From Methanopyrus kandleri AV19 (GTDB taxonomy: Archaea; JAADCQ01; Methanopyri; Methanopyrales; Methanopyraceae), in contig NC_003551.1 in assembly GCF_000007185.1 (NCBI RefSeq), forward strand, positions 510,001 through 542,000: 32,000 nt of DNA, written 5' to 3'. A program made the translations under genes and the position numbers. The notes beneath the pieces were generated by a model. The model was given only the letters and a program-made list of their open reading frames with translations, did not search any database and had not been told where the DNA came from. Below, piece after piece: positions 729 to 32,000 of the stretch; within the stretch, counting starts at the first letter, position 1; each line of letters begins with the position of its first letter.

Positions 729-855
729 GTGGCGGCGGCCACAGCGGCCGGGGCCACACCCGGGCCACATCTCGAACCCGGAAGTTAAGCCCGGCCGCGT
801 CCCGGGTGGTACTGCGCTCCGAGAGGGCGCGGGAAGCCCGGGATGCCGCCGCCGT
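729..855 (+). rRNA. rrf: 5S ribosomal RNA
   Basis: It contains the conserved archaeal 5S core CCACACCCGGxCxCAUxUCGAACCCGGAAGUUAAGCC and GUACUGCGCUCCGAGAGGGCGCGGGAAGCC. Helix I forms between GGCGGCGGC (731-739) and GCCGCCGCC (845-853). The ends are approximate to within a few nt. Confidence 0.9.
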
Positions 856-1705: not shown

Positions 1706-2170
1706 GTGGTCGTTCGGAGGGCTAAAAGGTCCGACATCCCGGAAGTTGTGGAGATAGAAGAGCGTGCGTTCCCGAAATCACCGTATCCTACGTACGTCTT
1801 CCTCTATAACCTGAGTAACAATCCGGAGGGGTTCCTGGTGGCTGAAGTTGGGGGTAAGGTGGTAGGATACGTCATCTTCGAGCTCCGACCGTGGCTCGGT
1901 GAGGGCCATATAGTCTCGATCGCCGTACATCCCAACTACCGGCGTACCGGAATCGGCACGATCCTCATGGGAGAGGCCGAGCGCAAGATAGCGGAAGCCG
2001 GATACGAAACCGTCAGACTGGAAGTTAGGGAGTCAAACTTTCCGGCCAGACGTTTCTACGAACGACTGGGTTACAGGGAGGAACGTAGAGAACACGGTTA
2101 CTACTCCGACGGAGAGACTGCCATAATCATGGTAAAGAAGCTGAAATCTCCCATCCAGTATCGACAATGA
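1706..2170 (+). CDS. rimI: GNAT N-acetyltransferase, RimI-like (ribosomal-protein-alanine acetyltransferase)
   Basis: GNAT motifs are present: IVSIAVHPNYRRTGIGTILM and ARRFYERLGY. The longest ORF starts at 1613 and overlaps amzA. The GTG at 1706 gives the typical RimI N-terminus (VVRRAKRSDIPEVVEIE), but the start is uncertain (1613, 1670 or 1706). Confidence 0.8.
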   Translation: MVVRRAKRSDIPEVVEIEERAFPKSPYPTYVFLYNLSNNPEGFLVAEVGGKVVGYVIFELRPWLGEGHIVSIAVHPNYRRTGIGTILMGEAERKIAEAGYETVRLEVRESNFPARRFYERLGYREERREHGYYSDGETAIIMVKKLKSPIQYRQ

Positions 2171-2248
2171 CGTCGTCAAGGCTCTTGGGAGCGGGAGTGC
2201 GGAGTTCGGTGGACCAAAACGTTTTAAACATTATAACGATAGGTCATG

Positions 2249-2322
2249 TGGCCCCGCCGGGATTTGAACCCGGGCTACGGGCTCCGCAGGCCCGCGTCCT
2301 ATCCAGGCTAGACTGCGGGGCC
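2249..2322 (-). tRNA. tRNA-Arg (anticodon GCG); no encoded CCA
   Basis: The reverse complement folds as a cloverleaf. The acceptor stem is GGCCCCG/CGGGGCC, the anticodon stem is CGGGC/GCCCG with loop CUGCGGA, the T arm is CCGGG-UUCAAAU-CCCGG, and the discriminator is A. Confidence 0.9.
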
Positions 2323-2348
2323 TGCTCCCTAGCGAGGAACCCCGCCCA

Positions 2349-2360
2349 GTTTAAAAAACC
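2349..2360. promoter_or_regulatory. AT-rich TATA element (GTTTAAAAAACC), possibly bidirectional
   Basis: Read on the minus strand (GGTTTTTTAAAC) it lies about 27 nt upstream of the tRNA-Arg 5' end. Read on the plus strand it lies about 90 nt upstream of the gltB-like start. Confidence 0.55.
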
Positions 2361-2448
2361 TTATGGGGCGGCGCGATCCCGACCGGTGAACGCTAAAGGT
2401 CCCCTCACACGGTCGACACCCTCACCGGTTTGTGGGGGAACCTCTCGG

Positions 2449-3675
2449 TTGTGGTGGCGCGAATACGTGAAAGAGATACAGCGAAAAGCTGAAACGGGCG
2501 AGTACGCGGTCCGTGGGTTCGGGACGAGCCGTAAAGTGCCGCACTTCGACGATTTGGTCATCCTCCCAGCCCAAGTTTCGCGACCTCCGATCGACAAGTA
2601 TCGGGAGCCGTGCAATACCAAGACAGTCCTCGGCGACCGGTTCGCGGAGAAACCACTGAAGTTGGATACCCCGGTGCTGGTTGGTGCCATGTCTTTCGGG
2701 GCGCTCAGCAAGGAGGCAAAGGTCGCGATCGCCCGTGGAACGGCTATGGTAGGAACCGCCACGAACACCGGTGAGGGGGGCATGTTACCGGAGGAACGGG
2801 AAGAAGCGAAGTGGCTCATCGCCCAGTACGCTTCGGGGCGATTCGGAGTCTCAGCGGAGTACTTGAACGCGGCCGACGCTATCGAGATCAAGATCGGACA
2901 GGGCGCCAAGCCCGGTATGGGAGGCCACCTCATGGGAGAGAAGGTGACGAAGGAGATCGCGGAGATAAGAGGTATCCCAAAGGGTTCGGACGCGCTGTCA
3001 CCGGCCCGTCATATGGACATAGTCGGACCCGAAGACCTGAAGATGAAAATCGAGCAGCTTCGGGAGATCACGGACTGGAAGATCCCGATCATCGTGAAGT
3101 ACAGCCCGGGTCGAGTCAAAGAGGATGTGAAGATCGCAGCCAAGGCCGGGGCCGATATTATAGCAATCGATGGAATGCAAGGCGGTACCGGCGCGTCACC
3201 GGAGATCGCGACCGAGAACGCCGGAATACCCACCATCGCCGCGCTAGTTCAGGCTGTGGAGGCCCTGAACGAGATCGGGATGCGGGACGAAGTCGACATA
3301 ATCATCTCGGGTGGCATCCGCGACGGTGCGGACGTCGCCAAGGCGTTAGCTTTGGGCGCCGACGCTGTCTATGTGTGCACCTCGGTCCTGATCGCCATGG
3401 GATGTACGGCATGCGCTCAGTGCCACTCTGGAAGGTGCCCGGTGGGTATCTGCACGCAGGATCCAGAGCTCCGTAAGAAACTGGATGTGGACGAGGCGGC
3501 GGAACGTGTGGCTAACTACCTGAAGGTGGTAACCGAAGAGTGCAAGATGTTGGCCCAGTTAGCCGGTAAGACGGACGTACACAACCTCGAAAAAGAGGAC
3601 CTTAGAGCGCTCTCGGAGGACGTCGCCCGTATTACCGGCGTGAAGATGGCCGGGTCCGACGTCGAGCTGGCCTAG
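2449..3675 (+). CDS. Glutamate synthase large-subunit domain 2-like protein (FMN-binding, GltB family)
   Basis: Motifs include PLKLDTPVLVGAMSFGALS, IKIGQGAKPGMGGHL, GGTGASP and the C-terminal Cys cluster CTACAQCHSGRCPVGICTQD. The ORF 2167..3675 N-terminus overlaps tRNA-Arg on the antisense strand, so I chose an internal TTG at 2449 (GTG at 2467 is an alternative). Confidence 0.85.
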   Translation: MWWREYVKEIQRKAETGEYAVRGFGTSRKVPHFDDLVILPAQVSRPPIDKYREPCNTKTVLGDRFAEKPLKLDTPVLVGAMSFGALSKEAKVAIARGTAMVGTATNTGEGGMLPEEREEAKWLIAQYASGRFGVSAEYLNAADAIEIKIGQGAKPGMGGHLMGEKVTKEIAEIRGIPKGSDALSPARHMDIVGPEDLKMKIEQLREITDWKIPIIVKYSPGRVKEDVKIAAKAGADIIAIDGMQGGTGASPEIATENAGIPTIAALVQAVEALNEIGMRDEVDIIISGGIRDGADVAKALALGADAVYVCTSVLIAMGCTACAQCHSGRCPVGICTQDPELRKKLDVDEAAERVANYLKVVTEECKMLAQLAGKTDVHNLEKEDLRALSEDVARITGVKMAGSDVELA

Positions 3676-6135: not shown

Positions 6136-6585
6136 TTACTCCTTCTCTTTGATGATTTTCTCCACCACCCTAACGTTCTCGATGCGGGTGTGTGGGTACT
6201 GCCCCTCTTCGTCCTTCTCAGCGTACTTAACCATGTCCCAGAGCGTGACTAATCCGACCACTAACCCGGTGAGAGCGTCCATTTCGACACCCGTCTTCCC
6301 CTCGGACTTAACTCGTACCGACATCTTCACGCCGTCCTCGAGGACCTCGACGTCGACATCGACGCCAGTGATCTTGATAGGATGACAGTGGGGAACTAAC
6401 TCCGGCGTCTTCTTCACGGCGAGTATGGCGGCTACCTTGGCAACCTCGATAGGATCGCCCTTACCCTGTGGGTGAGATTCACCCGATTTCACCGCGTTCA
6501 CACCGTCCTCGGTCAGCCTGAGGAACCCGCTAGCTTCGGCAATGCGGATCTCCTCTTTCTTCCCGGTGACGTCAACCATCGACAT
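6136..6585 (-). CDS. moaC: Cyclic pyranopterin monophosphate synthase accessory protein MoaC
   Basis: MoaC motifs are present: MVDVTGK, KGDPIEVAKVAAILAVKKT, CHPI and GVEMDALTG. The start is set at ATG 6585, preceded by GGGGGA. GTG at 6606 is the longest alternative. Confidence 0.9.
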   Translation of the reverse strand: MSMVDVTGKKEEIRIAEASGFLRLTEDGVNAVKSGESHPQGKGDPIEVAKVAAILAVKKTPELVPHCHPIKITGVDVDVEVLEDGVKMSVRVKSEGKTGVEMDALTGLVVGLVTLWDMVKYAEKDEEGQYPHTRIENVRVVEKIIKEKE

Positions 6586-6602
6586 CCGTCTTCCCCCAGC
6601 GG

Positions 6603-6661
6603 TCACTCCTAAAGGGGCTCATCACCCACAAGTGGTCGGTACTGCGGGACCCGTTCATCCC
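6603..6661 (-). ncRNA. Candidate C/D box-like sRNA between the 16S 3' end and moaC
   Basis: On the minus strand the order is GGGAUGA (6661-6655), 12 nt, GUAC, 13 nt, GUGAUGA, 12 nt, GUGA (6606-6603). The two box C-type motifs are good, the D-type boxes are degenerate, and there is no terminal stem. Confidence 0.25.
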
Positions 6662-6761: not shown

Positions 6762-6776
6762 ATCATCCCCGCCGCT

Positions 6777-8289
<1,513 letters not shown>

Positions 8290-8318
8290 TAAGTGACGGC
8301 CGCAAGGATTTCGGGTCC

Positions 8319-22865: not shown

Positions 22866-23444
22866 TTGAAGCCGAAGTGCTATCGGTGCCCTTCACCCGG
22901 AGACACATGTGATCGCTGCGGGCTCGCCGACGGGGATCAGATGGAGCGAACCGTGGAATCGTACCGACGGGACGAACTGTTCCGAAGCGCCTCGGAGATA
23001 GAGGTAGAAGGGTACATGGAATGGACGCGGGTCGAGGAGATCGCGGAACTGTGCGAGAGGATGGTGTGGAAAAGCGTCGGAGTAGCGTTTTGCGTGGGGT
23101 TAGCCGAAGAGGCCAGGGCGCTATGTGAGTTCCTGGAGGGGCGGGGCTTAGAAGTGTACTCAGTCTGCTGCAAAGTCGGAGGGGTACCGAAGTCGAAACT
23201 GAGTCTACTGGAGCTGAAACCGGGAGATAAAGTCTGCAACCCGCGGCTGCAGGCACGATTACTGAACGAAATCGGCACGGATCTGAACGTGCTCGTCGGA
23301 TTATGCGTGGGTCACGATATCATCTTCATCGAGGAGTCGGAGGCTCCCGTGACCGTCGCGGTGGTGAAGGACCGGAGGCTGGCCCACTGTCCAGCCTTAG
23401 CCCTCACGAACCGGTATTACAGGAGAAAGCTCGGGTTGGAGTGA
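22866..23444 (+). CDS. DUF1847-family Cys-rich metal-binding protein
   Basis: It has an N-terminal Cys cluster (KCYRCPSPGDTCDRCG) plus conserved blocks GVAFCVGLAEEA, VCCKVGG, CNP and LNVLVGLCVGHDIIFIEESEAPVTVAVVKDRRLAHCP. Confidence 0.7.
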   Translation: MKPKCYRCPSPGDTCDRCGLADGDQMERTVESYRRDELFRSASEIEVEGYMEWTRVEEIAELCERMVWKSVGVAFCVGLAEEARALCEFLEGRGLEVYSVCCKVGGVPKSKLSLLELKPGDKVCNPRLQARLLNEIGTDLNVLVGLCVGHDIIFIEESEAPVTVAVVKDRRLAHCPALALTNRYYRRKLGLE

Positions 23445-23450
23445 AAAAAA

Positions 23451-24368
23451 TCAGGCGAGGCCGAGCTTCTCGAGTACGGGCGTGCAGTCGATCTCGTGCG
23501 TCTCGAGGGCGAGCTCCTCCGGGTCCATTCCGAACGCCAGACCGGCCAGCTGGCAGTAGTGGAACACCGGTAGCTTCTTCGGTGGGAGCTTCTCGAAGTG
23601 CTCCTTCATCTCGATCTGTCCACGGTCGAACTGTAGGTGGCAGAACGGACAGACGTTGGTAGTGCAGTCGGCACCGGCTTCGAGCATGTTGAAGATCTTC
23701 TCGCGGGTGAAGTGAAGTGACACCTTGAGTTCCCTGGACCTCACACCACCTCCCGCACCGCAGCACATGATCTTGTCCTTGTAGTCGACGGACTCCGCCC
23801 CTAGGGCCTCGACGAGCTCGTCGAGCGTCCTCGGGTCCTCGACCGAACCTGGGAACCCGGTCACCTCCGACGGCTTCAGCAGGTGGCAACCGTAGTGAAC
23901 CGCTACCTTCAGCGGCTCACCGTCGGTCTTCTCGAGCGGCCTCTCGACCTTCTCCTTGATCTTTTTGACACCTACCTCCTCGTAAAGGAAGGTGTTCACG
24001 TGGTAGACCTTGACCTTACCCTTGTACTCCCTGTCGATCTCGGCGAGCTTTTCGTTCACGAACTCGCGCAGTTCCGGGTTCTCCTGCAACAGGTGGTTGG
24101 CTTCGTTCAGGGATCCGAAGCAACCGTTACAGACCGTCAGAATGTCGTATCCTTTCTCCTCGGCTATCGACAGGTTGCGGGCTGCGATCGTAACCCACGT
24201 CTTGAGGTCGAAGGACCCGAACACTCCGGGCGCCGGACAGCAGGAGGCACCGTCCATGTCGACGAGCTCGTATCCTAGTTCCTCGAAGACTAAACGCGTG
24301 GCCTTCTCGATGCCCGGATACCTGTTCGGCATGATACAACCAAGGAAGAAGCAGAGCTTCTTGGCCAA
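23451..24368 (-). CDS. hdrB: Heterodisulfide reductase subunit B (CoB-CoM heterodisulfide reductase)
   Basis: The N-terminus [15 protein letters not shown] is typical, and there are two CCG-type motifs (ASCCPAPG and IMCCGAGGG). It lies directly downstream of hdrC. Confidence 0.95.
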
Positions 24369-24380
24369 GGGTCAACCCCC

Positions 24381-25016
24381 TTAGTCGACCAGATCACCCT
24401 CCTCCCAATCGTACCCGATCAGTTTGTCGAACTCGTTGATCTTGACCAGCTTCTGGACCTCTTCGAGAGCTTCCTCATACCGATGTGTCGTCGGTGGTAC
24501 TTCGTCGAGGCCGATGTTCTTCCTCACCTCGCGGATCTCATCGTTGATCGGTACGGCGTGCCCGGTCTTTATCACGAACATAGCCACCATCCTGTGAGCC
24601 TTGGCCATGTACCCCTTCTTGGCCGCGAGGTTCCGGGCGGCTTTAACGGCGTCTACGATCTTCACACCACGTGGGCAGCGTTCGTAGCACGTGTAGCATG
24701 TGGTGCACATCCACAGCTCGTCGCTCTTGATCACTTCGTCGACGAGTCCTAACTGGAGCTTCCGCATGATCAGTCGGGTGCGGTAGGAGGTTCGTCGTCC
24801 GCTGGGGCACGAGCCCGTGCATGTACCGCACTGGTAGCACGCCTGGACCGACAGTACCTCTTCCTCCTCGAACACGGGCTCGACGAGCTCGCTCAGTTCT
24901 TCTAGGAAGTCCGGGTTGAGATCCTCCTCACGGATGACGGTATCTCGTGGCTCGACCAACGCGCGGCCCTGAAGGGTTCCGCCCAGAAGAACCTTTTTAC
25001 GATACCCACCCGGCAC
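24381..25016 (-). CDS. hdrC: Heterodisulfide reductase subunit C
   Basis: It has two ferredoxin-type motifs, CYQCGTCTGSCP and CTTCYTCYERCP. It starts at GTG. Confidence 0.93.
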   Translation of the reverse strand: MPGGYRKKVLLGGTLQGRALVEPRDTVIREEDLNPDFLEELSELVEPVFEEEEVLSVQACYQCGTCTGSCPSGRRTSYRTRLIMRKLQLGLVDEVIKSDELWMCTTCYTCYERCPRGVKIVDAVKAARNLAAKKGYMAKAHRMVAMFVIKTGHAVPINDEIREVRKNIGLDEVPPTTHRYEEALEEVQKLVKINEFDKLIGYDWEEGDLVD

Positions 25017-28099: not shown

Positions 28100-28177
28100 G
28101 TGAACGCTCCCCCGAGTGTGACCGAAGTTTGATTAACCCCGAACTACCGGGTGTCTTGACGGCGCGGGGTGTTAGTA

Positions 28178-28615
28178 TTGGCCCGGGTGTTCATTCACCC
28201 GCCTAACAGTCTGATTCTCCACGATCTGGTCGAGAGGTTCGGGCACGAGCCACTCTCACTGCCGAAAGAGATAAGCAAACGAGTGCGAGACCCAGAGATC
28301 GACTCACCCCCGATGAACGTAACCCCTCAGGACGCGAAGCGAGGTCTGAAGTACGCGGCCGTGGAGGTCCCTTCGGGTGTCAGGGGCAGGCTGGCCCTGA
28401 TCGGTCCACTCATAGAGAAGGCCGACGCCGCCATCGTAGTCACAGGCATCGAGGACTTCTCCTTCGGCTGCCTAGGCTGCGACAGAACGAACGAGTTCGT
28501 GACGTACCTAGTTCGACGCCAAGGCATACCGGTGCTGGAGCTGGAGTACCCGAAATCGGAGGAAGAAGCGAAAGCGTTCGTCCGTGAAATCCGAGACTTC
28601 TTGGAGTCGTTGTAG
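28178..28615 (+). CDS. Methanogenesis marker protein 5 (Mmp5)
   Basis: The N-terminus (A)RVFIHPPNSLILHDLVERFGHEPL matches the marker-5 family start (IFIYPPNSLIL.DLVER.GH.PL). It is about 146 aa. The start is ambiguous (GTG 28169, TTG 28178 or GTG 28187). Confidence 0.8.
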   Translation: MARVFIHPPNSLILHDLVERFGHEPLSLPKEISKRVRDPEIDSPPMNVTPQDAKRGLKYAAVEVPSGVRGRLALIGPLIEKADAAIVVTGIEDFSFGCLGCDRTNEFVTYLVRRQGIPVLELEYPKSEEEAKAFVREIRDFLESL

Positions 28616-28627
28616 GGGTGGTCCCGT

Positions 28628-29851
28628 TTGGCCGTCCAGATCGCTCAGCTCTCGTGTGGCACGGAGTATAGCGGTGTCCAACCCGAGATAGAGCGTGCGG
28701 CCGAACGAGTCGGGGCCGAGATCGTACTCCCCGAGGTAGACATCGATATTGTAGAGGAAGCCTGCGAGGAGGTCGGGTACACTCCGAAGAGTGCGAACCT
28801 GAAAGTCCTTCTCGCCCGCGCTTACGCGCTGGCCAACGGATACGCGGAGGCCGACGCCGCGATCATCCTGACGTGCTTCAGGTGCGCCGAGGGAGCTCTC
28901 GTGCGTAGCGAGGCCCGACGGTACCTTCAGGAGAACACGGATCTCCCAGTCGTCACCTACTCGTTCACTGAGGACCTCGACGCCAGCGAGTTACTCACGC
29001 GGATGGAGGCACTAGTCACGATAGTGGAGCGGAAGGGGCTACTGGCCCGGAAGAGGCAGGAGGGACTCACCCTCGGTATCGACTCCGGTTCCACCACCAC
29101 GAAGGCCGTGGTGATGGAGGACGACGAGGTGATCGGAACCGGATGGGTACGGACCACGAAGGTGGTCGAATCCGCGGAAAAGGCCGTAGAAAGAGCGTTA
29201 GAAGAGGCCGGGTACGAGCTCGACGACATCGAGGCGATAGGCGTGACCGGGTACGGTAGGTACACCCTCGGCCGCCACTTCGACGCTGACCTGGTGCAAG
29301 AGGAGCTCACGGTTAACTCCAAGGGAACGGTGTACCTGGGTGACAAGCAGGAGGGCGGCGCGACCGTGATCGACGTCGGCGGGATGGACAACAAGGCGAT
29401 CACCGTTTGGGACGGGATTCCGGATAACTTCACGATGGGCGGCGTGTGCGCGGGAGCGTCGGGTCGCTTCCTCGAGGTGGCCGCGGACCGTATCGGCGTG
29501 GACCTGGACAAGTTCGGTAAGCTCGCGCTAGAGGGAGATCCCGAAGCCGTGCGTCTGGACAGTTACTGCATCGTGTTCGGGATCCAGGACCTGGTGACCG
29601 CGTTGGCTGAGGGTGCGGATCCCGAGGACGCCGCCGCTGCCGCATGTCGGAGCGTCGCCGAACAGATCTACGAGCAGCAGCTCCAAGAGATCGACATCCG
29701 AGAGCCGGTGTTCTTCGTGGGAGGAACCTCGCTGGTCGACGGCATGGTGAAGGCCTTAGAGGACGTGATCGGCGTCGAAGTAGTCGTGCCCGAATATCCC
29801 CAGTACATCGGGGCCGTCGGTGCCGCCCTCCTGGCCTCCAACTACGTGTGA
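28628..29851 (+). CDS. Methanogenesis marker protein 15 (Mmp15; BadF/BcrA/HgdC-type ATPase domain)
   Basis: The N-terminus [14 protein letters not shown] is followed by an acetate/sugar-kinase-type ATPase domain ([34 protein letters not shown]). It is 407 aa and starts at TTG, 12 nt after mmp5. Confidence 0.85.
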
Positions 29852-29863
29852 GGGGATCCGACG

Positions 29864-30490
29864 GTGTACGAGCACAGGGGAAAGAGGATCCTCGTAAGAG
29901 CGTCCGAAAAGGAGGCGGCCGAGCTGTACTACGACATCACTAGGCACGCGGCCACGGACCTGGGACTGGCGAGAACGATCACCGCGGCCGTGTTCCACCT
30001 AGACATCGAGGCCCCGCTCTACGCCGCCGCGGTGCGAACGCGTCCCATGCTCAGGCCGGTGACGCTGGGGAAGGTCTCGCACCTCGAGCTCGACGATGAG
30101 GAGGGTACTCTCAAGGTATCGGTCGCCGTGGAGCGCTACTTCCCCGATGTGATCCGAACGTTACAGAGTGTATTCGGAGAGGATCGCGTCCGGCACGAAG
30201 AGCGCCTCGAGATTACGATCGAGCCACCCGAGGGGATGAGTCCCGAACATCTCGAGAAACTCGAAGAGCTCGTCGTCCACGATCCTCGGAAGAAGCTCGC
30301 CCACAGGGTGTACGATTTCATCGAGCGGGTACGGCCAGAGGGGTTCCGAGTGGCCCGATACGCGCGCTTCGATCAGGACTTCCTATACCTGGCCAGCGAA
30401 GGCACGCTCGAGGACGAGTGGACCGACTTACTCTTCGAGCTGCCGGGAGAGCTAGATCGTGTCGGAGAGCGCCGGGGGCCGAGTGAGTGA
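29864..30490 (+). CDS. Methanogenesis marker protein 17-like (Mmp17)
   Basis: It is a 208-aa soluble protein in the position between mmp15 and mmp7 that Mmp17 usually occupies. The assignment rests on size, context and my general recollection of the family, not on a diagnostic motif. Confidence 0.6.
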   Translation: MYEHRGKRILVRASEKEAAELYYDITRHAATDLGLARTITAAVFHLDIEAPLYAAAVRTRPMLRPVTLGKVSHLELDDEEGTLKVSVAVERYFPDVIRTLQSVFGEDRVRHEERLEITIEPPEGMSPEHLEKLEELVVHDPRKKLAHRVYDFIERVRPEGFRVARYARFDQDFLYLASEGTLEDEWTDLLFELPGELDRVGERRGPSE

Positions 30491-31335
30491 GAGGACCGTG
30501 TCCGAACGATCACCCGTGTTACGTCGGGGAGCACGGGAAATTCGTGAAGGTGCACCTACCCGTGGGCGGACGGTGTAACATCCACTGCCGTTTCTGCGAA
30601 TCCGGACTCGAGCACGAGGGAGTACGGGTGGATTATCCCGGACGTGCCGTCCGCACGATCACCGGAGACGAGGCTAGGACGGCCCTCAAAAGGGTAAAAG
30701 AGCACTGCGGACGCGTCGACGTCGTCGGAATCGCCGGACCCGGCGACCCACTGGCGAACTGGGAGGACGTGAAGGAGACCTTCGACGTCGTCGCCGAAAC
30801 GGTACCGGAGGCGAAACGCTGCCTGTCCACCAACGGCGTGTGGTTACCCGATTTGATCGACGAGGTGACGGAGCTCGTGCACTCGGTGACGATCACCGTC
30901 AACGCGCTGGACCCCGAGATCGCGGCCGATATCTACGATCGAGCACTGACACCCGAAGGCGAGGTGTTGACCGGGAAGGAGGCCGCCCGATGGATCGTCG
31001 AGAGGCAGGAAGGGGCCATGGACGCGCTGAAGAAGGAGCGCTACATACTCAAGAAGGTCAACTTCGTGCTCGTCCCCGGTGTGAACGAAGACGAGGTCGA
31101 ACGCGTCGCGGAGCGCGCCGCCGACGCAGGGTTTCACGCCATGAACGTGATCCCCCTCATCCCGGGCGGCGACATGAAGGACCACCGACCGCCGACGTGC
31201 CGGGAGCTCTCGAGGGCGCGGGACCGGGCTGAGAAGTACATCACCGTGATGCGCCGATGCATGCAGTGTCGCGCCGACGTGATCCACTGCCGCGGCAGAC
31301 CCCGGCTGATCTGGGAGCTGCTAGAAGAGGACTGA
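30487..31335 (+). CDS. nifB: NifB-family radical SAM protein (stand-alone SAM domain, 282 aa)
   Basis: NifB-specific motifs are present. HPCY is at nt 30511-30522. The radical-SAM motif CNIHCRFC is at 30574-30597, preceded by VHLPVGGR. Also present are VGIAGPGDPLAN, CLSTNG, VTITVNALDPEI and KVNFVLVPGVNE. The C-terminal CMQCRAD is at 31258-31278. The GTG start overlaps the mmp17 stop (GTGA). Confidence 0.85.
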   Translation: MRGPCPNDHPCYVGEHGKFVKVHLPVGGRCNIHCRFCESGLEHEGVRVDYPGRAVRTITGDEARTALKRVKEHCGRVDVVGIAGPGDPLANWEDVKETFDVVAETVPEAKRCLSTNGVWLPDLIDEVTELVHSVTITVNALDPEIAADIYDRALTPEGEVLTGKEAARWIVERQEGAMDALKKERYILKKVNFVLVPGVNEDEVERVAERAADAGFHAMNVIPLIPGGDMKDHRPPTCRELSRARDRAEKYITVMRRCMQCRADVIHCRGRPRLIWELLEED

Positions 31336-31354
31336 CCCCCTGGGGGTCGCGAGC

Positions 31355-32000
31355 GTGTTCGAAACCGTGATCTACGAAGGGGGCGTGTACAAGGCCGACG
31401 AGATGCGCGACCTGGTCGAGGACCTCGGCGGGTTCGTCCTGTCCGAGCACCAGATGCAGCTGGAGGTCCACATGGTTCTAGCCGTACCCGTCGACGACCT
31501 GGACGTCATAGAGCGGAAAGCGGAGGAGCTCCTCGGAGAGATAAGGAGGATGCCGCTGGCCGGTACCGAGATCGCGGTCGTGGGGATGAGCCTGGCCCGT
31601 CATCACATGCCACATCCCGTGTGTGACATCGCCGAGTACCTCAGGCGTCACGGCGCCAAGTCCAACGTGATCGGCTTGGCCAGAGGTTACGGACGCGAGC
31701 TGGCCCAGCTGCGCACCCGGGAGAAACGTCTCCTTGAAGAACACGACCTGGTGATCTTCGTCGTAGGGAACTTCAAAGATTGCATCGAGAAGTACAAGCT
31801 GCCGCTGGTCCGACGGATAGAACGCGTGCCGGTCGTCGTGGTGGGAGGTCCGGAGGAGATCGACGCCGACGACGTGGTGTACGTGGGAGGAATAGGTAGA
31901 AAGCCGTACCGGTTCAGGAAGGGTCGCGAGATCACGAAGCTCGACGAGATCGTCGACGTCGTCTCGAAGATCATCGAGGAGCGACGACAGGAGCTGGCTG
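31355..32000 (+). CDS. Methanogenesis marker protein 7 (Mmp7), 3'-truncated by the window edge
   Basis: An open frame runs from GTG 31355 (GGGGG is 8 nt upstream) to the window end. It is absent from the ORF track because it has no stop. The translation VFETVIYEGGVYKADEMRDLVEDLGGFVLSEHQ...VVGMSLARHHMPHPVCDI...VVVVGGPE resembles the marker-7 family N-terminal half. Confidence 0.7.
   Translation, partial: MFETVIYEGGVYKADEMRDLVEDLGGFVLSEHQMQLEVHMVLAVPVDDLDVIERKAEELLGEIRRMPLAGTEIAVVGMSLARHHMPHPVCDIAEYLRRHGAKSNVIGLARGYGRELAQLRTREKRLLEEHDLVIFVVGNFKDCIEKYKLPLVRRIERVPVVVVGGPEEIDADDVVYVGGIGRKPYRFRKGREITKLDEIVDVVSKIIEERRQELA

Follow-up and report, generated by a model that had tools for sequence, protein, structure and literature searches.

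A NifB homologue encoded among methanogenesis marker genes in Methanopyrus kandleri and its possible role in methyl-coenzyme M reductase activation

The mmp5-mmp15-mmp17-nifB-mmp7 block

We analyzed a stretch of 32,000 nucleotides from Methanopyrus kandleri AV19 (NC_003551.1, positions 510,001 to 542,000; hereafter the window, in whose own numbering all positions are given). At 28169-32000, a gene for a homologue of the radical S-adenosylmethionine (SAM) protein NifB is embedded among genes for methanogenesis markers (Mmp) that belong to or accompany the machinery activating methyl-coenzyme M reductase (MCR). An earlier note, made from the sequence of this DNA, had proposed that this homologue is a dedicated maturase of the clusters of that machinery, and we examined its identity, its genomic setting and the readings that compete with this proposal. 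The five genes, all on the plus strand, were delimited from open reading frame (ORF) calls and junction sequences:

28169..28615, plus strand: mmp5 (methanogenesis marker 5, DUF2112), 148 aa; TIGR03271 248.6 bits (cutoff 140), PF09885 224 bits
28628..29851, plus strand: mmp15, an N-terminal Cys-rich domain and a BcrAD/BadFG-type ATPase, 407 aa; TIGR03286 772.9 bits (cutoff 456), PF01869 244.8 bits
29864..30490, plus strand: mmp17 (DUF2113), a subunit of the MCR activation complex, 208 aa; TIGR03291 246.3 bits (cutoff 67)
30487..31335, plus strand: nifB homologue, stand-alone and without a NifX domain, 282 aa; its start overlaps the mmp17 stop (GTGA)
31355..32000, plus strand: mmp7 (McrC family), first 215 codons with no stop, cut by the window end; TIGR03274 346.3 bits (cutoff 349.15)

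The successive junctions measure 12, 12, -4 (GTGA) and 19 nt. The earlier note had described five tightly packed plus-strand genes in which mmp5, mmp15, mmp17 and mmp7 flank a NifB-type gene; we recovered the same ORFs and gaps, and the Pfam and NCBIfam scores bear out the marker identities. Mmp7 scores just under its family cutoff, but only 215 of its approximately 300 residues lie inside the window; the gene is incomplete because the window ends there, relatives encoding products of 298-313 aa. At the other end of the block, the called GTG start of mmp5 at 28169 is probably too early. Because relatives start at an aligned TTG, we place the likely start at the in-frame TTG at 28178, which has GGGGTG upstream and would give a product of 145 aa, as in the relative L090 (145-147 aa among relatives). 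No homologue of Mmp5 was found in the PDB. Mmp15 is 63-68% identical across methanogen orders and has PDB relatives (4eht, 9gai, 1hux); its ATPase domain is similar to the proteins that activate 2-hydroxyacyl-CoA dehydratases and benzoyl-CoA reductases by ATP-driven electron injection. We found no mmp3, mmp6 or atwA (A2) in the window, nor downstream of mmp7 in the Methanopyrales relatives.

The signals detected around these genes are the following:

28128..28136, plus strand: TATA-like element TTTGATTAA, candidate operon promoter; the sole 9-mer with at least 8 A/T between 28000 and 32000
28615..28624, plus strand: Shine-Dalgarno-like GGGGTGGTCC, 3 nt 5' of the mmp15 TTG start
29850..29859, plus strand: Shine-Dalgarno-like GAGGGGATCC, upstream of the mmp17 GTG start
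31342..31347, plus strand: Shine-Dalgarno-like GGGGGT, 7 nt 5' of the mmp7 GTG start

The element AGTTTGAT(T)A is conserved 5' of mmp5 in L090 and also in L081, which is more distant. The 3' end of the 16S rRNA, which is encoded in the same window, reads GGAUCACCUCC, and GGGGTGGTCC is complementary to it. The sequences before mmp15 and mmp17 closely resemble the complement of this 3' end; the resemblance is weaker ahead of nifB, which is preceded by GGGGG, and ahead of mmp7. From these signals and the gene spacing, the five genes probably form one transcript starting behind the TATA-like element at 28128. A scan for bacterial promoters and terminators was uninformative for this archaeon, giving no promoters and one terminator-like site on the minus strand, outside the cluster.

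Identity of the NifB homologue and gene order among methanogens

The best NCBIfam family for the fourth protein is NifB (TIGR01290, 221 bits), the next being MoaA with 43 bits. A phmmer search against the PDB aligns residues 8-271 with NifB of M. thermautotrophicus (7BI7, 7JMA, 7JMB) with an E value of 3e-59, and also returns Methanothrix NifB (6Y1X) with 3e-48. The motifs that had led the earlier note to call the protein NifB-type are present as H9-P10-C11-Y12, C30-x3-C34-x2-C37 and C258-M-Q-C261-R-A-D, and sequence, ligands and predicted fold all uphold that assignment. We drew the ligand assignments from PMC8179604, PMC6053413 and PMC7145814. Alignments of 16 and of 73 sequences show no variation at the radical-SAM ligands C30, C34 and C37. 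In addition to these cysteines, the strictly conserved ligands of the K-clusters are C18, H31, C115, C260 and C263 (Jenner et al., PMC8179604); their equivalents C11, H23, C112, C258 and C261 are all present in Methanopyrus NifB and are invariant or nearly so among the same 16 and 73 homologues. The semi-conserved H24 (PMC8179604 numbering) corresponds to H16, and the AGPGD, TxTxN and CxxCRAD motifs are kept. We rejected MaNifB Cys264 as an obligatory K2 ligand, because it is not a conserved residue among the solved NifBs (PMC8179604); in our alignment this residue alternates with the Cys of a 'PTC' motif, and it is the latter that Methanopyrus NifB has.

The AlphaFold2 model of the protein (predicted local distance difference test, pLDDT, 92.1; predicted template modelling score, pTM, 0.90) has the NifB fold, with a radical-SAM core built as a partial beta-barrel, cluster-binding stretches at both termini and a C-terminal beta-hairpin. 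Foldseek superposes it on 7bi7 over 268 columns with an E value of 7e-29, a template modelling (TM) score of 0.86-0.90 and a root-mean-square deviation of 2.0-2.1 A; the next radical-SAM family by fold, pyruvate formate-lyase activase, reaches a TM score of 0.60. The protein misses the curated TIGR01290 cutoff of 343.65 bits, a model of 441 positions calibrated on NifB-NifX fusions, of which stand-alone proteins match only about the first 280-290. This is no disqualification, because the solved M. thermautotrophicus NifB core (303 bits) misses it too. The fourth protein is a true NifB, if a divergent one.

The five-gene order (DUF2112, BcrAD, DUF2113, radical-SAM, MCR_C) recurs in four further Methanopyrales assemblies; their NifB proteins are 86, 73, 72 and 71% identical to that of M. 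kandleri in our alignment. In these four relatives the mmp17/nifB junctions measure -4, -17, 0 and -4 nt and the nifB/mmp7 junctions 30, 4, -1 and 3 nt. The upstream neighbors are the same across the relatives and the downstream neighbors differ, so the gene unit ends at mmp7.

The earlier note had suggested a neighborhood survey across methanogens as a check on the linkage between NifB and mmp genes. Because a protein search with Mmp17 gave only eight Methanopyrales relatives, we dropped it as an anchor and used the highly conserved Mmp15, collecting 80 loci (one genome per species, 10-kb flanks) that were searched with the window proteins by phmmer; the Methanopyrales loci were obtained apart from this survey, via contigs encoding close homologues. 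The order mmp5-mmp15-mmp17-nifB occurs in 36 of the 80 loci, all from Methanobacteriales (36 of 66 informative ones), and mmp5-mmp15-mmp17-mmp7 without nifB occurs in 30, from Methanomassiliicoccales, Methanofastidiosa, Methanosarcinales and Methanoperedens. Seven have neither nifB nor mmp7 (six Methanococcales and L058, an uncultured Methanobacteriaceae), and seven are incomplete downstream. None of the 80 loci has both nifB and mmp7 within its 10-kb flanks. Among the loci examined, nifB is thus linked to mmp genes in Methanobacteriales and Methanopyrales only, and Methanopyrales alone have both nifB and mmp7 in the cluster; the gene order of Methanopyrus combines the two common ones, mmp17-nifB and mmp17-mmp7.

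Could this adjacency reflect genome compaction only, with NifB serving an unrelated client and merely sharing the mmp transcript? M. kandleri genes are tightly packed, the window has further -4 overlaps (such as that of 1613-2170 and 2167-3675), and nifB is unlinked to mmp genes in most other methanogen orders. Yet the mmp17-nifB-mmp7 position has been kept across Methanopyrales while NifB diverged to approximately 71-72% identity and the downstream flanks were reshuffled, and this persistence of the block in four diverged assemblies with differing flanks argues that the linkage is not due to chance. The mmp17-nifB adjacency is also kept in the 36 Methanobacteriales loci, the other tight pairs in the window are functional partners (Nop5 and fibrillarin, and two dihydroorotate dehydrogenase subunits), and no other candidate client for an L-cluster is known for this genome, which is scored NifDK-negative. 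We therefore hold it to be quite unlikely that compaction alone accounts for the arrangement.

Some of the surveyed loci have features of their own. The Methanobacterium cluster runs mmp2-mmp3-mmp6-(125-aa ORF)-mmp5-mmp15-mmp17-nifB, and the 125-aa ORF between mmp6 and mmp5 (L009, 9088-9465) has no NCBIfam match. Locus L058 (9980-12184) carries tandem mmp15 copies (561 and 410 bits), the second of which occupies the usual place of mmp17, where the contig ends. A complete mmp5-mmp15-mmp17-mmp7 cluster lies on a contig labelled 'Eggerthellaceae bacterium' (L048, 9528-12718), which is almost certainly a mis-binned archaeal, Methanomassiliicoccales-like contig. Finally, in a Bathyarchaeota-labelled metagenome-assembled genome (GCA_052246975.1; L085, 1-12867), nifB lies approximately 4 kb from mcrB/mcrG, surrounded by DUF2117, DUF2124, an AIR-synthase-like gene and another radical-SAM gene, which hints at a second, independent association of nifB with MCR genes, outside Euryarchaeota.

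NifB as a candidate supplier of clusters for MCR activation

The clients that would receive the product of NifB are encoded on either side of it. Mmp7 matches chain H of the M. maripaludis activation complex (8s7v_H; also 9H1L) with an E value of 1e-63, ungapped over residues 1-102, and Mmp17 matches chain G (8s7v_G) with 7e-8. The presence in this complex of L-cluster-like [8Fe-9S-C] clusters, which the earlier note mentioned, is indeed reported by Ramirez-Amador et al. (Nature 2025, PMC12176620). In that structure, C143 and H84 of Mmp7 ligate the cluster FeSIII, located at the Mmp7-Mmp17 interface, and C90 approaches FeSII (PMC12176620). All three residues are kept in Methanopyrus Mmp7 and are invariant in 36 aligned Mmp7 sequences. 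Since FeSIII lies at the Mmp7/Mmp17 interface, nifB sits between the genes for the two proteins enclosing one of the three [8Fe-9S-C]-like clusters.

The best-supported reading, which we consider likely, is that NifB builds L-type clusters for the MCR activation machinery in M. kandleri; the identity of the protein, its fold, its linkage and the scored absence of NifDK all speak for the dedicated maturase that the earlier note had envisaged. The locus would then be the Methanopyrus version of the 'MCR activation operon', a term taken from a 2026 preprint (bioRxiv 10.64898/2026.03.18.712670), with one transcript encoding Mmp5, the ATPase Mmp15, Mmp17, NifB and Mmp7. By homology, NifB would hold the SAM-cleaving [4Fe-4S] cluster on C30/C34/C37 and two substrate [4Fe-4S] clusters, K1 at C11, H23 and C112 and K2 at C258 and C261. 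It would move a SAM methyl group to the substrate clusters, turn it into carbide and fuse the two cubes into an [8Fe-9S-C] L-type cluster. As M. kandleri would have no NifDK or NifEN to accept this cluster, delivery would presumably be to the L-cluster sites in the MCR activation complex, namely Mmp7 H84 and C143 at the Mmp7/Mmp17 interface and the two McrC sites, where the clusters make up the electron path for reduction of F430 to Ni(I).

That the gene encodes an ordinary nitrogenase NifB serving nitrogen fixation is, by comparison, highly improbable. Homologues of similar identity (approximately 40%) do lie in true nifH-nifD-nifK clusters. Nevertheless, M. kandleri (GCA_013329715.1) is scored as positive for NifB and negative for NifD, NifK, NifX-1 and NifX-2 (Saini et al. 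2023, Table S1), the neighbors of the gene are methanogenesis markers, not nif genes, and no nif structural or regulatory gene occurs in the 32-kb window, whose other 28 kb hold housekeeping and RNA genes only. Both the table and the window agree with the statement in the earlier note that Methanopyrus has no nitrogenase structural genes.

Several points weigh against a role of NifB in supplying the MCR machinery. No experiment in the literature ties any NifB to the Mmp7/McrC clusters of the MCR complex, and the carbide in these clusters, according to the authors of the structure, 'requires further experimental validation' (PMC12176620). The single transcript is deduced only from gene gaps, one conserved TATA-like element and internal Shine-Dalgarno-like sites. 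The linkage between nifB and mmp genes is lineage-restricted, as nifB is not near the mmp genes in the 30 non-Methanobacteriales loci mentioned above, nor in those of Methanococcales. That nitrogenase is absent genome-wide is taken from a published table on another M. kandleri assembly, and the negatives of this table are imperfect, because its M. kandleri row also scores CfbD as absent. Last, the protein itself departs from characterized NifB in two respects. The Methanopyrales proteins are the most divergent NifBs that we examined, with 221 bits to TIGR01290 for that of M. kandleri compared with 275-306 for other stand-alone archaeal NifBs (homologue P0009 and a NifB-NifX fusion score 368-450), and the Cys of the flexible loop (C52 in PMC8179604 numbering; MaNifB C63) is absent in all five Methanopyrales NifBs. 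In characterized NifB, the Cys-Glu pair of this loop caps the radical-SAM and K1 clusters, and replacing C52 and E53 abolished NifB-co synthesis by M. thermoacetophila NifB (PMC8179604). With the pair missing, Methanopyrus NifB lacks a defining feature of the characterized enzymes.

These departures raise the alternative of a NifB-derived radical-SAM enzyme without the canonical L-cluster product, making a different Fe-S species or acting on another target in MCR activation. The five Methanopyrales proteins have no Cys between C37 and P51, and their loop (residues 38-50 in Methanopyrus NifB) has the sequence ESGLEH[ED]G... and exceeds the usual length by three residues; E42, H43 and E44 may substitute for the loop Cys, the alignment inside the loop being ambiguous. 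The lowest confidence inside the model falls on residues 41-50 (pLDDT 61), in keeping with a mobile element. After CxxCRAD, V-[ILV]-H-C replaces the usual A-x-G-x-P-G in all five, so that H267-C268 are lineage-specific, and an extra Cys74 is likewise conserved in the five proteins. The motif alignment and phylogeny that the earlier note had proposed gave a divided result: the ligand motifs align and are kept, but a neighbor-joining tree of 157 NifB sequences provides no sister group for the clade. Here Methanopyrales form a long isolated branch roughly equidistant from all others (mean BLOSUM distance 0.635 to the Methanobacteriales group and the same 0.635 to the rest), with M. thermautotrophicus NifB as the nearest sequence (0.579). 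As the tree has no outgroup, midpoint rooting, which puts the clade at the root, does not allow a sister group to be claimed.

The evidence on the other side is, in our view, stronger. All strictly conserved K-cluster and radical-SAM ligands and the AGPGD, TxTxN and CxxCRAD motifs are retained, the NifB fold is predicted up to its C-terminal beta-hairpin, and the expected client Mmp7 retains its L-cluster ligands. Moreover, 24 of 155 NifB homologues (from the homologue set P0001-P0120 and loci L001-L080) are also without the loop Cys, the mmp-linked Methanobrevibacter NifB among them, so this residue is not universally required; six of these 24 bear a Cys two residues after CRAD (CRADACG). This suggests, as far as sequence comparison can, that alternative ligand arrangements exist within the NifB family. 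A loss unique to Methanopyrales is thereby ruled out. Loss of the loop Cys is also no marker of non-diazotrophs, given that one Methanobrevibacter locus (L041) keeps it and two others (L075 and L076) do not. We thus think it unlikely that the product is something other than an L-type cluster.

A bolder scenario can be drawn from the gene orders. A single ancestral MCR activation operon may have carried nifB between mmp17 and mmp7, an order preserved in Methanopyrales, and the mmp17-nifB order of Methanobacteriales and the mmp17-mmp7 order of the other surveyed lineages may each have arisen by one loss or translocation. Methanopyrales NifB, with NifX scored absent, the loop Cys missing and an extra His-Cys after CRAD, could in addition be a carrier-independent L-cluster synthase that passes its product straight to the site at the Mmp7/Mmp17 interface during translation of the neighboring genes. 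Taken jointly, these two propositions are tentative and on balance doubtful.

The supply of MCR clusters by NifB is a published hypothesis and is not new here. A NifB homologue was already listed among methanogen-specific genes (Kaster et al. 2011); NifB is present in 245 of 245 methanogen proteomes, nitrogenase in only approximately 67%, and nifB could not be deleted in M. acetivorans (Saini et al. 2023). Along with the L-cluster-like centers, NifB was proposed as their source, and the mmp cluster of M. marburgensis was noted to be followed by nifB (Ramirez-Amador et al., Nature 2025, PMC12176620). A 2026 review repeats the proposal, and states that the characterized NifBs do not include any from non-diazotrophic methanogens (PMC13474568). 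With the hypothesis, the universality and essentiality of NifB and the Methanothermobacter nifB-mmp linkage already published, our locus corroborates rather than discovers. What we add is the Methanopyrales-specific mmp17-nifB-mmp7 order, the quantified distribution of the two partial orders, the conservation of the Mmp7 ligands beside nifB and the sequence peculiarities of Methanopyrales NifB; in the literature searched, we found no description of the Methanopyrus arrangement or of the loop-Cys loss. The locus gives the tightest genomic link between nifB and MCR activation in our survey, with nifB apparently coupled in translation to mmp17 and followed by mmp7 in an organism scored nitrogenase-free. 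This makes M. kandleri NifB an experimental subject whose only plausible client is the MCR machinery. A builder of nitrogenase-like clusters that helps to switch on methyl-coenzyme M reductase would bear on both methane biology and the origin of nitrogenase.

Elsewhere in the window, a DUF1847 gene (plus strand) and then a minus-strand heterodisulfide-reductase-like pair lie upstream of the block (22866-25016), the pair consisting of a CCG-domain protein (23451-24368) and a 4Fe-4S dicluster protein (24381-25016). Beyond it are a LysR-type helix-turn-helix regulator, DUF169, TrmB and a cytidylyltransferase, a neighborhood largely conserved in L081. A complete archaeal 16S rRNA gene (6776-8289, minus strand, 1463 bits) has no adjoining 23S gene and is directly followed on the same strand by moaC (6136-6606); a 5S rRNA gene (731-854, plus strand) lies approximately 6 kb away on the opposite strand. 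The rRNA genes thus appear to be unlinked in the M. kandleri genome. The program-called ORFs 647-1126 and 7612-8292 are artefacts overlapping the 5S and 16S rRNA genes. A tRNA-Arg(GCG) gene (2248-2322, minus strand) lies inside the 5' part of the called ORF 2167-3675; as the glutamate synthase domain begins at residue 124 of this ORF, the real start of the glutamate synthase gene must be downstream of the tRNA.

Comparison with known systems

The closest parallel in gene order is found in Methanobacteriales, where nifB also directly follows mmp17 in an mmp5-mmp15-mmp17 cluster. There, however, nifB ends the cluster, mmp7 is not within 10 kb, and the cluster starts with mmp2-mmp3-mmp6. The mmp-linked NifBs of this order and M. 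thermautotrophicus NifB (7BI7, 7JMA, 7JMB) are stand-alone proteins without a NifX domain, as in Methanopyrus. The M. thermautotrophicus protein has the same HPC, His, CX3CX2C, Cys112-equivalent and CxxCRAD ligands and the same 'PTC' Cys, although its identity to Methanopyrus NifB is only 41.5%, and the two differ in the loop (a longer ...LEHEG... in Methanopyrus in place of Cys-Glu) and in the tail (CRADV[ILV]HC as opposed to CRADAxGxPG in M. thermautotrophicus and Methanobacteriales). M. thermautotrophicus NifB is competent for L-cluster synthesis (PMC13474568), and the Methanobacteriales mmp-linked NifBs, being 71-77% identical to it, are orthologues of an L-cluster-competent enzyme. M. thermautotrophicus fixes nitrogen according to PMC13474568, so its NifB may have two clients.

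The MCR activation operon of Methanosarcina acetivorans comprises Mmp5, Mmp6, Mmp17, Mmp7, Mmp3, Mmp15 and A2; co-transcription was demonstrated by reverse transcription PCR, and the genes could not be deleted (bioRxiv 10.64898/2026.03.18.712670). It shares mmp5, mmp15, mmp17 and mmp7 with the Methanopyrus block, which differs in having nifB and in lacking mmp3, mmp6 and atwA (A2). In the Methanosarcinales-type loci that we surveyed, mmp7 directly follows mmp17, with no nifB within 10 kb.

Outside Methanopyrales, the closest sequence (44% identity) is P0005, the NifB homologue of a nitrogenase-like (NFL) cluster, which is also without the loop Cys. Its locus (L083, 2529-6819) contains NifX-like, NifH-like and NifD-like genes and a methionine-type ABC transporter, and resembles in gene content the methylthio-alkane reductase clusters of PMC12552129, of which it would be a candidate member. 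P0005 is another non-nitrogenase use of NifB, with a different client and gene context, and its Cys lies two residues after CRAD rather than four as in Methanopyrales.

In M. maripaludis, the genes for the MCR activation complex lie scattered over the genome, unlike the Methanopyrus block, and the solved complex (8S7V, 8S7X, 9H1L) is without Mmp5, Mmp15 and NifB. Mmp7 and Mmp17 are both subunits of it, and the Mmp7 ligands H84, C90 and C143 are common to the two organisms.

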